Of a stretch of 64,000 nt of DNA, positions 38,125 to 39,751 are shown one piece after another. A program made the position numbers and the translations under genes. Source of the DNA: an uncultured Clostridia bacterium (GTDB taxonomy: Bacteria > Bacillota > Clostridia > Oscillospirales > Ruminococcaceae); assembly GCA_944382845.1 (NCBI GenBank), contig CALWNN010000085.1, positions 2,150 through 66,149 on the forward strand, given 5' to 3'. The first letter of the stretch is position 1; every line of letters starts with the position of its first letter. The notes under the pieces are model-generated. The model was not told the DNA's origin, searched no databases, and saw only the letters and a program-made list of their open reading frames with translations.

Positions 38125-39060
38125 TTAGTTATCGGAGTTTTGCGCCTTGAAAATATTTATTCTCTCATTTTCAACATCAAGCTCCGCCTTTACCCTTTCT
38201 CCGCCCTTTATGCCAAGAGCCTCCATATACTCTCCGGGAAGCTGAACCCTTCCCGTTCTGTCAAGGACTACAAGCTCTTCATGAACAAGCTCTTCTTCCT
38301 CTTCGTTTTCTTCTATGGGCGTCATTCTGCCAAGCTCGCTGAGATCCTCCGCATAGGAGCGTTTTCTTATGATCTCCGAAGATGTCCGTCCGTCGCGTAT
38401 GGCGACTACACGGTCTATATGTTTTGCAAGCTTAACGTCATGTGTGACTATTACTATTGTTATCCCCTCCGTCCTGTTAAGCTCCTTGAATATATCAAGT
38501 ATAGCCTTGGAGGTTTTTGTATCCACAGAACCCGTAGGCTCGTCTGCAAGAAGTATCTTCGGGTCGTTTGCAAGCGCAATGGCTATTGCGACCCTTTGTT
38601 GTTCACCGCCGGACATCTGGTCGAGCCTTGAATTCTTTCTGTGGGAAAGTCCCACCTTTTCAAGAAGCTCCTCCGCCCGTTTTCGTCTTGACTTCGTACC
38701 CTTCAAAAGCATTGGCATTTCAACATTCTGCACAGCCGTCAGGTAAGGAACAAGATTTCTGGCGTTGTTCTGCCATACAAATCCAACGGTATTTCGTTTG
38801 TATTCGATATAGTCCTTTTCCGAAAATTTAAGAAGATTCTTTCCGTTGACGTAAAGACTTCCGGCGCTTGGTCTGTCAAGCCCCCCAAGCATATTAAGGA
38901 GCGTAGATTTTCCGCTTCCGGAATTTCCTACGATCGCCATAAGTTCGCCCCTTCTGATCTCAAGGTCAAGTCCCTGAAGGGCGACAACCTCGATCTCGTC
39001 GGTCTTATAGATCTTGACTAAGTTGTCACAGAGGATCATTACGTCCTTATCGATTGTCAT
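38125..39060 (-). CDS. ABC ATPase of LolD/MacB/FtsE-like class with C-terminal acidic linker plus AbrB/SpoVT-like domain
   Basis: It has Walker A GNSGSGKST, signature MSGGEQQRVAIAIALA and Walker B LLADEPTGSVD. The C-terminus is VVLDRTGRVQLPGEYMEALGIKGGERVKAEL..ENERINIF. The maximal ORF reaches 39117; the ATG at 39060 lies just after the upstream stop. Confidence 0.8.
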   Translation of the reverse strand: MTIDKDVMILCDNLVKIYKTDEIEVVALQGLDLEIRRGELMAIVGNSGSGKSTLLNMLGGLDRPSAGSLYVNGKNLLKFSEKDYIEYKRNTVGFVWQNNARNLVPYLTAVQNVEMPMLLKGTKSRRKRAEELLEKVGLSHRKNSRLDQMSGGEQQRVAIAIALANDPKILLADEPTGSVDTKTSKAILDIFKELNRTEGITIVIVTHDVKLAKHIDRVVAIRDGRTSSEIIRKRSYAEDLSELGRMTPIEENEEEEELVHEELVVLDRTGRVQLPGEYMEALGIKGGERVKAELDVENERINIFKAQNSDN

Positions 39061-39070
39061 TTCACTGCTT

Positions 39071-39751
39071 TCACTCAACGATCTCACCGTCCTCAAGGGT
39101 ATACACCTTATCGGCAATATCCATCATACTGGGGTCATGGGTAGTCATAAGAATAGTCATTCCGTGTTCACCCACAAGTTCCTTGAAAAGTTTTACCACA
39201 TGAAGAGCGGTGTTTGTGTCAAGCTCAGCGGTAGGCTCATCGGCAAATATAACATCGGGCTTATGGGCGATCGCTCTTGCAATAGCAACCCTCTGCTGTT
39301 CGCCTCCGGACATTTCGCCCGGTCTGTGGAACATTCTTTTTTCAAGTCCCACGCTTACAAGCGCTTCCTTTGCACGTTTACTGCGTTCTTCATATGGATA
39401 TTTGGCAAGTCTCAGACCGAACTCAACGTTTTCATATGCGGTCATGCTTGAGATAAGAGCCACCGACTGAAAAACAAATGCCATCTGATACCGTCTCAGA
39501 AGATCTCTTTTCTTTTCGGAGAAGCTTGTAATATCATCTCCTTTAAAAATAACGCTTCCGGAAGTAGGCTTATCAAGAGCTCCGAGAATATTTATCAGAG
39601 TTGTCTTTCCGCTTCCCGAACGCCCTCTGAGTATTGTGAGCTGTCCCTTCAGAACTTCAATATTCACATTTTTCAACGCATGGACAACGCTTCCGTCGCC
39701 GATCTTGAAGTCCCTGCAAAGCTCCCTCGTTGATAAAATACACTCAGCCAT
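39071..39751 (-). CDS. ABC ATPase of LolD/MacB/FtsE-like class (first gene of the operon)
   Basis: 226 aa. It has Walker A GRSGSGKTT, signature MSGGEQQRVAIARAIA and Walker B IFADEPTAELD. An AAGGAGAG RBS is present. Confidence 0.85.
   Translation of the reverse strand: MAECILSTRELCRDFKIGDGSVVHALKNVNIEVLKGQLTILRGRSGSGKTTLINILGALDKPTSGSVIFKGDDITSFSEKKRDLLRRYQMAFVFQSVALISSMTAYENVEFGLRLAKYPYEERSKRAKEALVSVGLEKRMFHRPGEMSGGEQQRVAIARAIAHKPDVIFADEPTAELDTNTALHVVKLFKELVGEHGMTILMTTHDPSMMDIADKVYTLEDGEIVE

Follow-up and report, generated by a model that had tools for sequence, protein, structure and literature searches.

The subject of this analysis is a pair of ATP-binding cassette (ABC) ATPase genes, here called A and B, in a 64,000-nucleotide stretch of DNA (the window) from contig CALWNN010000085.1 of an uncultured Clostridia bacterium of the family Ruminococcaceae. 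The two are the first genes of an operon that also encodes MalFG-type sugar permeases, all on the minus strand, and an earlier reading of the letters alone (the first-pass annotation) had taken this as a true mismatch of classes, with LolD/MacB-type ATPases serving as the motor of CUT1 permeases. We consider it likely that A and B are the motor of a split MacB-type machine, that the CUT1 permeases are driven by an MsmK-type ATPase encoded elsewhere in the genome, and that the mismatch is one of gene order only. This machine, a type VII ABC system, would have A and B as its heterodimeric ATP motor, and its membrane parts, an FtsX permease (FtsX976) and a HlyD-like adaptor (HlyD363), would be those encoded on another contig, C22. 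That there are two different nucleotide-binding domains (NBDs) would suit the permease, a single chain whose two FtsX halves are not identical. The ancestral form would have been a four-gene unit of HlyD, FtsX permease, A and B, which stays together in most Clostridia and was presumably split in the family of the window. There the A–B pair would have come to lie behind the promoter of a CUT1 module of eight genes, with which it is probably co-transcribed without being its motor; this insertion of ATPase genes at the operon head would account for the apparent mismatch.

The class of the two ATPases is well defined. Both open reading frames (ORFs) are present where they had been placed on the minus strand and form a conserved pair, and the motifs quoted for them are all there: GRSGSGKTT, MSGGEQQRVAIA and ADEPTAELD in A, and GNSGSGKST, MSGGEQQRVAIA and ADEPTGSVD in B. 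The signature begins with M, not L, in both proteins, the Q-loop Gln, Walker B Glu and H-loop His are retained, and the two are 42% identical. For both, the top-ranked NCBIfam models are those of LolD, DevA, FtsE, MacB, YbbA and bacteriocin exporters. ATPase B scores 238.6 bits with LolD against 182.5 with PhnC, the best importer model (MetN 168.7, GlcV 153.7; a lead of about 56 bits), and ATPase A scores 205.4 with LolD against 167.9 with ProV, its best importer model (GlcV 158.5; a lead of about 37 bits). All of these scores are below the equivalog cut-offs, so that A and B are members of the class, yet neither is LolD itself. Models of the MalK type rank far down (GlcV at 154–158 bits), and the C-terminal part does not fit a MalK/MsmK-type ATPase either, as A has no extension and that of B is AbrB-like, not OB_MalK/TOBE. 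The nearest relatives of B in the PDB are Rv1281c, LolD, MJ0796, YtrE, MacB and YbbA, and its AlphaFold2 (AF2) model has a predicted local distance difference test (pLDDT) score of 80–96 across the NBD core. All 41 NBD-bearing ORFs collected from the window's own genome were placed in a tree. A and B lie within its clade of ATPases fused or adjacent to FtsX permeases, which also takes in the short ATPases C27_4729 and C9_3450 but neither the MsmK-type NBD nor any other importer NBD. The LolD/MacB/FtsE assignment made at first pass is thereby upheld by model scores and tree alike.

As had also been noted at first pass, no FtsX-fold permease is found among the operon genes by Pfam and NCBIfam assignments. 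The same genome (2.14 Mb, 99.8% complete) encodes one on contig C22: FtsX976 is a full-length single chain of 976 aa with two FtsX domains, homologous to the permease that adjoins A and B in a Christensenellales locus (L029; 39% identity over 976 aa). It is preceded by HlyD363, an intact adaptor of the HlyD or resistance-nodulation-division membrane fusion protein (MFP) type, and the pair (C22:40296-44352) is flanked by unrelated genes on the opposite strand. No ABC ATPase is encoded anywhere on this 66.7-kb contig, and the remaining FtsX proteins of the genome all come with an ATPase, either fused or adjacent. Leaving out the neighbours of C27_4729 and C9_3450, no parts of this class other than A/B and FtsX976/HlyD363 were found unpaired in the genome. 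That another ATPase serves FtsX976 was considered and rejected on the same two grounds, the other FtsX proteins having their own ATPase and C22 having none.

Relatives show how these parts are arranged elsewhere. A scan with one genome per species gave 30 loci with a tail-bearing B ortholog. The order A–B, binding protein, P1, P2, NHL/TPR protein, Yip1 protein and DUF5696 protein is kept in 24 of 27 loci from Ruminococcus, Oscillospiraceae and Ruminiclostridium, and the remaining three of these (L001, L009 and L026) end at contig edges. The Christensenellales locus L029 has the order HlyD, a 938-aa FtsX permease, A, B and HlyD; two ORFs of 277 and 292 aa downstream of its second HlyD gene (11990-13785) are without a Pfam match and may also have belonged to the pump operon in its ancestral form. 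In L030 (Dehalococcoidia), two FtsX proteins of about 1100 aa are followed by B and A, and phage terminase and portal genes come directly after this cluster (12052-15157). In L028, from a Clostridia metagenome-assembled genome (MAG), the C-terminus of an FtsX protein is followed by A and B. HlyD proteins accompany the FtsX permeases of these three loci, and the genomes contain no DUF5696.

The permease follows the ATPases closely. Every one of 23 tested A/B-carrying genomes has one FtsX976 ortholog, at 38–71% identity (26% in L030); 22 of these are without an internal stop and one (G019) has a single in-frame TAG, while several MAG copies are fragmented. A and B orthologs stand side by side in 53 of the 54 loci examined. 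In an even draw of 399 genomes of Clostridia, 55 (about 14%) have a B ortholog and 58 an FtsX976 homologue, and 54 genomes have both, so that the permease is carried by 54 of 55 B genomes (Fisher p=8e-61, kinship ignored); the exceptions are mostly incomplete MAGs. B and FtsX976 are adjacent, on the same contig and within a few kb, in 43 of the 54. They are split in four families, that of the window and three others in which the A–B pair lies among unrelated genes (methyl-accepting chemotaxis protein, aconitase, glucoamylase). Several Clostridia (G063, G068, G175, G320, G342 and G389) carry the FtsX976-type permease twice, and some of them B twice as well, so the system is duplicated in places. 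In two loci of another Clostridia family, L105 (G133:C22, 9374-16551) and L104 (G268:C49, 2-6214), it is HlyD and FtsX976 that stand about 290 nt before the sugar module, with A–B on a separate contig, a mirror image of the arrangement in the window. The proposal that A and B are the motor of the MalFG permeases is not supported by these comparisons: elsewhere the two ATPases mostly lie beside FtsX, and the window's genome has kept an FtsX976/HlyD pair that lacks an ATPase of its own.

The sugar module, for its part, has a likely motor elsewhere. Its four MalFG-type permeases, P1 to P4, have canonical EAA loops and are most likely driven by a single stand-alone ATPase of the MsmK/UgpC type, as in other Firmicutes. 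An orphan MsmK, which the first-pass annotation had named as something to look for, does exist: the genome has exactly one MalK-type ATPase (C6:26085-27227), with OB_MalK and TOBE_2 domains and a score of 486.6 bits for the UgpC subfamily (cut-off 432). There is no permease on its contig, and none of the three CUT1 permease pairs of the genome has its own ATPase. Of 400 Clostridia, 315 have an OB_MalK ATPase, as do 77 of the 78 module genomes, usually as a single copy in both sets. Experiments have established the sharing of one MsmK or MsmX by many CUT1 systems (PMC8579813, PMC7658222, PMC5730181); in C. bescii, where no CUT1 system has its own ATPase, deletion of msmK abolished growth on xylan, cellulose and pectin (PMC8579813).

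The module is also much more widespread than its link to A and B. DUF5696 was found in at least 115 of 400 genomes, and the eight-gene block is conserved in 20/20 extended loci examined from many Clostridia families. Just two of these loci have A–B at the head of the block, that of the window itself and one of the same family (L090); in the 18 loci of other families the pair is absent throughout, and one of these (L087) also has no P2 in place. B is missing from 51 of 78 module genomes. The module therefore needs no such ATPase. The block resembles xloEFG-X-GH129-axoFGE, the two-transporter part of the C. bescii xylan degradation locus (PMC8579813), and by analogy with that locus DUF5696 may be GH129-like; we found no paper on DUF5696, and a comparison of the protein with PDB sequences gave no meaningful match.

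Several observations weigh against a mismatch of gene order only. The order A–B–module is kept in at least 27 species-level genomes in which DUF5696 is down to 35–63% identity, and in the window only 54 nt, without a terminator, separate ATPase B from the binding-protein gene, which together point to selected co-expression rather than accident. Moreover, the module is present in 27 of 55 B genomes and in 51 of 344 others, an odds ratio of 5.5 in which kinship and ecology are ignored, and A and B might dock on the CUT1 permeases as well. A functional coupling, in which A and B still dock on FtsX976 and the MacB-type machine and the CUT1/DUF5696 module cooperate at the cell surface, is in our estimate unlikely, though it deserves to be taken seriously. 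The Yip1 protein of the module could then act like YknW, or the pump could export, extract or assemble something for the module. This coupling is favoured by the enrichment just mentioned, by the co-transcription suggested by the promoter and terminator scan, and by the finding that the module is linked to one half of the pump, A–B, in the family of the window and to the complementary half in another family (L082/L104, L105), where HlyD–FtsX976 are co-directional and just upstream of the binding-protein gene and A–B lie elsewhere. In the YknWXYZ system a Yip1 protein modulates the assembly of a complex of an MFP and a MacB-type transporter (PMC4887032). On the other hand, 51 of 78 module genomes are without the pump and 28 of 55 pump genomes without the module, the pair has unrelated neighbours in the three other split lineages, and the enrichment figure takes no account of kinship and ecology. 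To the idea that a mechanotransducing ABC pump forms one surface apparatus with a twin sugar importer, possibly by way of Yip1 in the manner of YknW for YknXYZ, we give about one chance in five in its plain form; in its extreme version A and B might energise both kinds of membrane partner.

It is far less probable that the classes have been crossed, with A and B co-opted as a motor dedicated to one or both MalFG pairs and replacing or supplementing MsmK. The position at the operon head, the short gap and the conserved synteny would fit such a recruitment, the numbers suggest one ATPase for each of the two permease pairs, and the NBD groove that receives the coupling helices is common to ABC proteins generally. 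Against it stand the retention of FtsX976 in 23/23 A/B genomes (22 without an internal stop), with no other adjacent ATPase in the window's genome, the retention of MsmK, and the 18 loci examined from other families, in none of which the module has such ATPases. Nor are we aware of any type I importer that is served by a LolD-class NBD. A comparison of 28 operon-head A/B pairs with 27 pairs that are FtsX-adjacent or stand alone revealed five diagnostic substitutions in B, all conservative (V44/I, K192/R, I215/V, I230/F, G287/K), and one in A, with none in the Q-loop block (residues 91–110), which is 90–94% identical in all groups. At the level of sequence there is thus no sign that A and B have been re-adapted at the operon head. 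An assignment of A to one permease pair (as A2) and of B to the other (as B2) was rejected as the main reading, as A and B travel together beside a single FtsX permease in most genomes. On balance we prefer the split MacB-type machine, with MsmK as the driver of the CUT1 permeases.

One of the two NBDs carries an additional domain. The first-pass annotation had described the tail of B as an acidic linker followed by an AbrB/SpoVT-like domain, and Pfam, a PDB profile search, AF2 and Foldseek all agree with this description. The tail alone (residues 228–311) matches the Pfam family MazE_antitoxin/SpoVT-AbrB (PF04014) with E=6e-4 and 20.2 bits, against a cut-off of 24.7, and B of L028 reaches 21.6 bits against the same cut-off; a precomputed match to the family is present on many B orthologs. 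An alignment of 21 tail sequences (A1) shows an invariant core EL..D..GR.Q.P...G and, before it, a linker composed of a conserved SEIIRK.SY.EEL motif, a short helix, and a variable acidic stretch. Used as a profile against the PDB, the alignment matched SpoVT with E=0.08 and several AbrB entries with E of about 0.2, all sub-significant; a match to SRP54 was spurious and due to the 'D.aGRlQ' G-motif. Since the matches at the sequence-profile level remained sub-significant, a fold search was needed to settle the domain. AF2 run on A1 gave a beta-beta-alpha-beta-beta unit (pLDDT 76–84), and the top 19 Foldseek matches of this model in the PDB are all SpoVT, AbrB, MazE, Sso7c4 or C68. The Foldseek probability is 0.98–1.0 for the first nine, with E-values of just 0.017–0.1, and the target-normalised template modelling scores are 0.56–0.63 for the AbrB-N and 5itm/5itj domains (root-mean-square deviation 2.3–3.0 Å over 44–46 columns). 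As modelled, the tail of B is thus an AbrB/SpoVT-like fold, which would hang on a flexible acidic linker of about 30 residues. When B was modelled with AF2 over its full length, the NBD was predicted with confidence, residues 233–264 were predicted to be disordered (pLDDT <50) and the tail had no confident docking on the NBD, so that the model says nothing on the role of the tail.

The AbrB-like domain of the tail has a net charge of −4 in the window and of −3 to +1 in orthologs, and as a net acidic domain behind an acidic linker it is unlikely to bind DNA, as had been suspected at first pass; a protein–protein role is more plausible. Most likely, to judge from the sequences, the tail is a regulatory or dimerising module of the pump and not a DNA binder. 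The classical AbrB-type fold is an interleaved dimer, and there is one tail only per A/B pair. We give hardly any credence to the idea that the tail makes B a transporter-tethered transcription regulator of the downstream operon, even though AbrB/SpoVT/MazE domains are typically DNA-binding and the gene of B lies right behind the operon promoter. Besides the charge of domain and linker, the tail has EYMEAL or DYLEAL at what we take to be the positions of the DNA-contacting arginines of AbrB; it is conserved equally where A and B adjoin FtsX and the module is absent; and a single tail per heterodimer does not suit a fold that binds DNA as a dimer.

The proposed machine combines features of several known systems. 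Like those of YbbAP, MacAB, LolCDE and FtsEX, the NBDs of A and B belong to the LolD/MacB/YbbA class. YbbP of the E. coli type VII system YbbAP is one chain with two FtsX domains (PMC12646458), as is FtsX976, and the adaptor of the MFP/HlyD type would correspond to MacA in MacAB. Unlike this group, the system has two different NBD genes instead of a homodimer, an AbrB-like C-terminal domain on one of them and a monoderm host, and its genes are at two loci in the window's family. The Gram-positive, MFP-dependent YknWXYZ system of Bacillus consists of a Yip1 protein, an MFP, a MacB-type ATPase and an FtsX permease, the Yip1 protein YknW being an assembly factor of YknXYZ (PMC4887032). The window's genome encodes parts of each of these four kinds (Yip1 of the module, HlyD363, A/B and FtsX976), though at two loci. 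In contrast to YknWXYZ, the Yip1 gene belongs to a widespread sugar module that is often without any pump, the permease is duplicated (about 976 aa), the NBDs would be heterodimeric, and there is no evident link to a peptide toxin. The module itself resembles CUT1 importers with a shared ATPase (MsmX in B. subtilis, MsmK in S. pneumoniae and C. bescii) in its EAA-loop permeases, the lack of a cognate MalK-type gene and the single stand-alone MsmK/UgpC-type ATPase in the genome; it differs from them, in the window's family, by two ATPase genes of an unrelated class at the operon head. Finally, the tail of B can be compared with the OB/TOBE domain of MalK and the C2/NIL domain of MetN as an extra C-terminal domain on an NBD that likely modulates the ATPase cycle or assembly. 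It is distinguished from these by its AbrB/SpoVT swapped-hairpin fold, its presence on just one of two NBDs, its long disordered acidic linker and its occurrence in a type VII, not a type I, system.

If this reading is correct, an apparent exception to the matching of ATPase and permease classes is removed, with the mismatch lying in gene order and not in mechanism. It also calls for caution when ATPases are assigned to permeases by operon position alone in the annotation of gut and rumen Firmicutes. At the same time, the comparison defines an uncharacterised and fairly widespread MacB-type system, present in about 14% of the sampled Clostridia genomes. Its two different NBDs would be matched to the two FtsX domains of its permease, and one of them bears an AbrB-like domain; our literature search found no paper on an AbrB/SpoVT domain fused to an ABC ATPase. 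That either half of the pump has repeatedly become attached to the same glycan-uptake module hints at functional coupling and provides a lead on how surface uptake is organised in fibre-degrading bacteria.

The features of the operon are listed in the table below. Its ten co-directional genes are tightly spaced downstream of a consensus promoter, which comes after the terminator of rnfB (40267-40301), and the promoter and terminator scan revealed no terminator-like site between ATPase B and the binding-protein gene, so that A and B are probably co-transcribed with the module. Gene callers start ATPase B at a TTG (39078), which gives a protein of 317 aa.

Features of the A/B operon in the window
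Feature	Position	Strand	Description and basis
Sigma-70-type promoter	39985..40013	-	TTGACA-17-TATAAT with TG; upstream of ATPase A; sequence scan
ATPase A	39071-39751	-	226 aa; LolD/MacB-class NBD without extension; all catalytic motifs intact
ATPase B	38125-39060	-	311 aa counted from ATG
ATPase B, NBD core (residues 1-227)	38380..39060	-	LolD/MacB class; all catalytic motifs intact
ATPase B, linker (residues 228-262)	38275..38379	-	alignment A1
ATPase B, AbrB/SpoVT/MazE-like C-terminal domain (residues 263-306)	38143..38274	-	Pfam, PDB profile, AF2, Foldseek
Eight-gene CUT1/DUF5696 sugar module	25547..38070	-	downstream of A/B
Giant binding protein	35143-38070	-	secreted, 975 aa; CBM-like N-terminal parts and SBP_bac_1/8 domain; Pfam/NCBIfam
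Permease P1	34136-35119	-	UgpA/MalF-like; Pfam/NCBIfam
Permease P2	33228-34121	-	UgpE/MalG-like; Pfam/NCBIfam
NHL/TPR protein	31564-33183	-	C-terminal anchor; Pfam/NCBIfam
Yip1 membrane protein	30934-31563	-	Pfam/NCBIfam
DUF5696/FIVAR protein	27650-30916	-	1088 aa; Pfam/NCBIfam
Permease P3 (second pair)	26613-27650	-	MalFG-type
Permease P4 (second pair)	25547-26620	-	MalFG-type

The giant binding protein and the DUF5696 protein each carry a signal peptide of the kind cut by signal peptidase I (AVFAGAASA/TEE and VFA/ADQ, respectively), and no lipobox, LPXTG motif or C-terminal anchor was seen in either. The membrane-anchored NHL/TPR protein or Yip1 may hold the giant binding protein at the Gram-positive cell. 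The window also contains an ordinary cell-division set, which is unrelated to the pump described here and consists of FtsE (17907-18590), FtsX (17005-17910) and a coiled-coil M23 peptidase (15385-16785).

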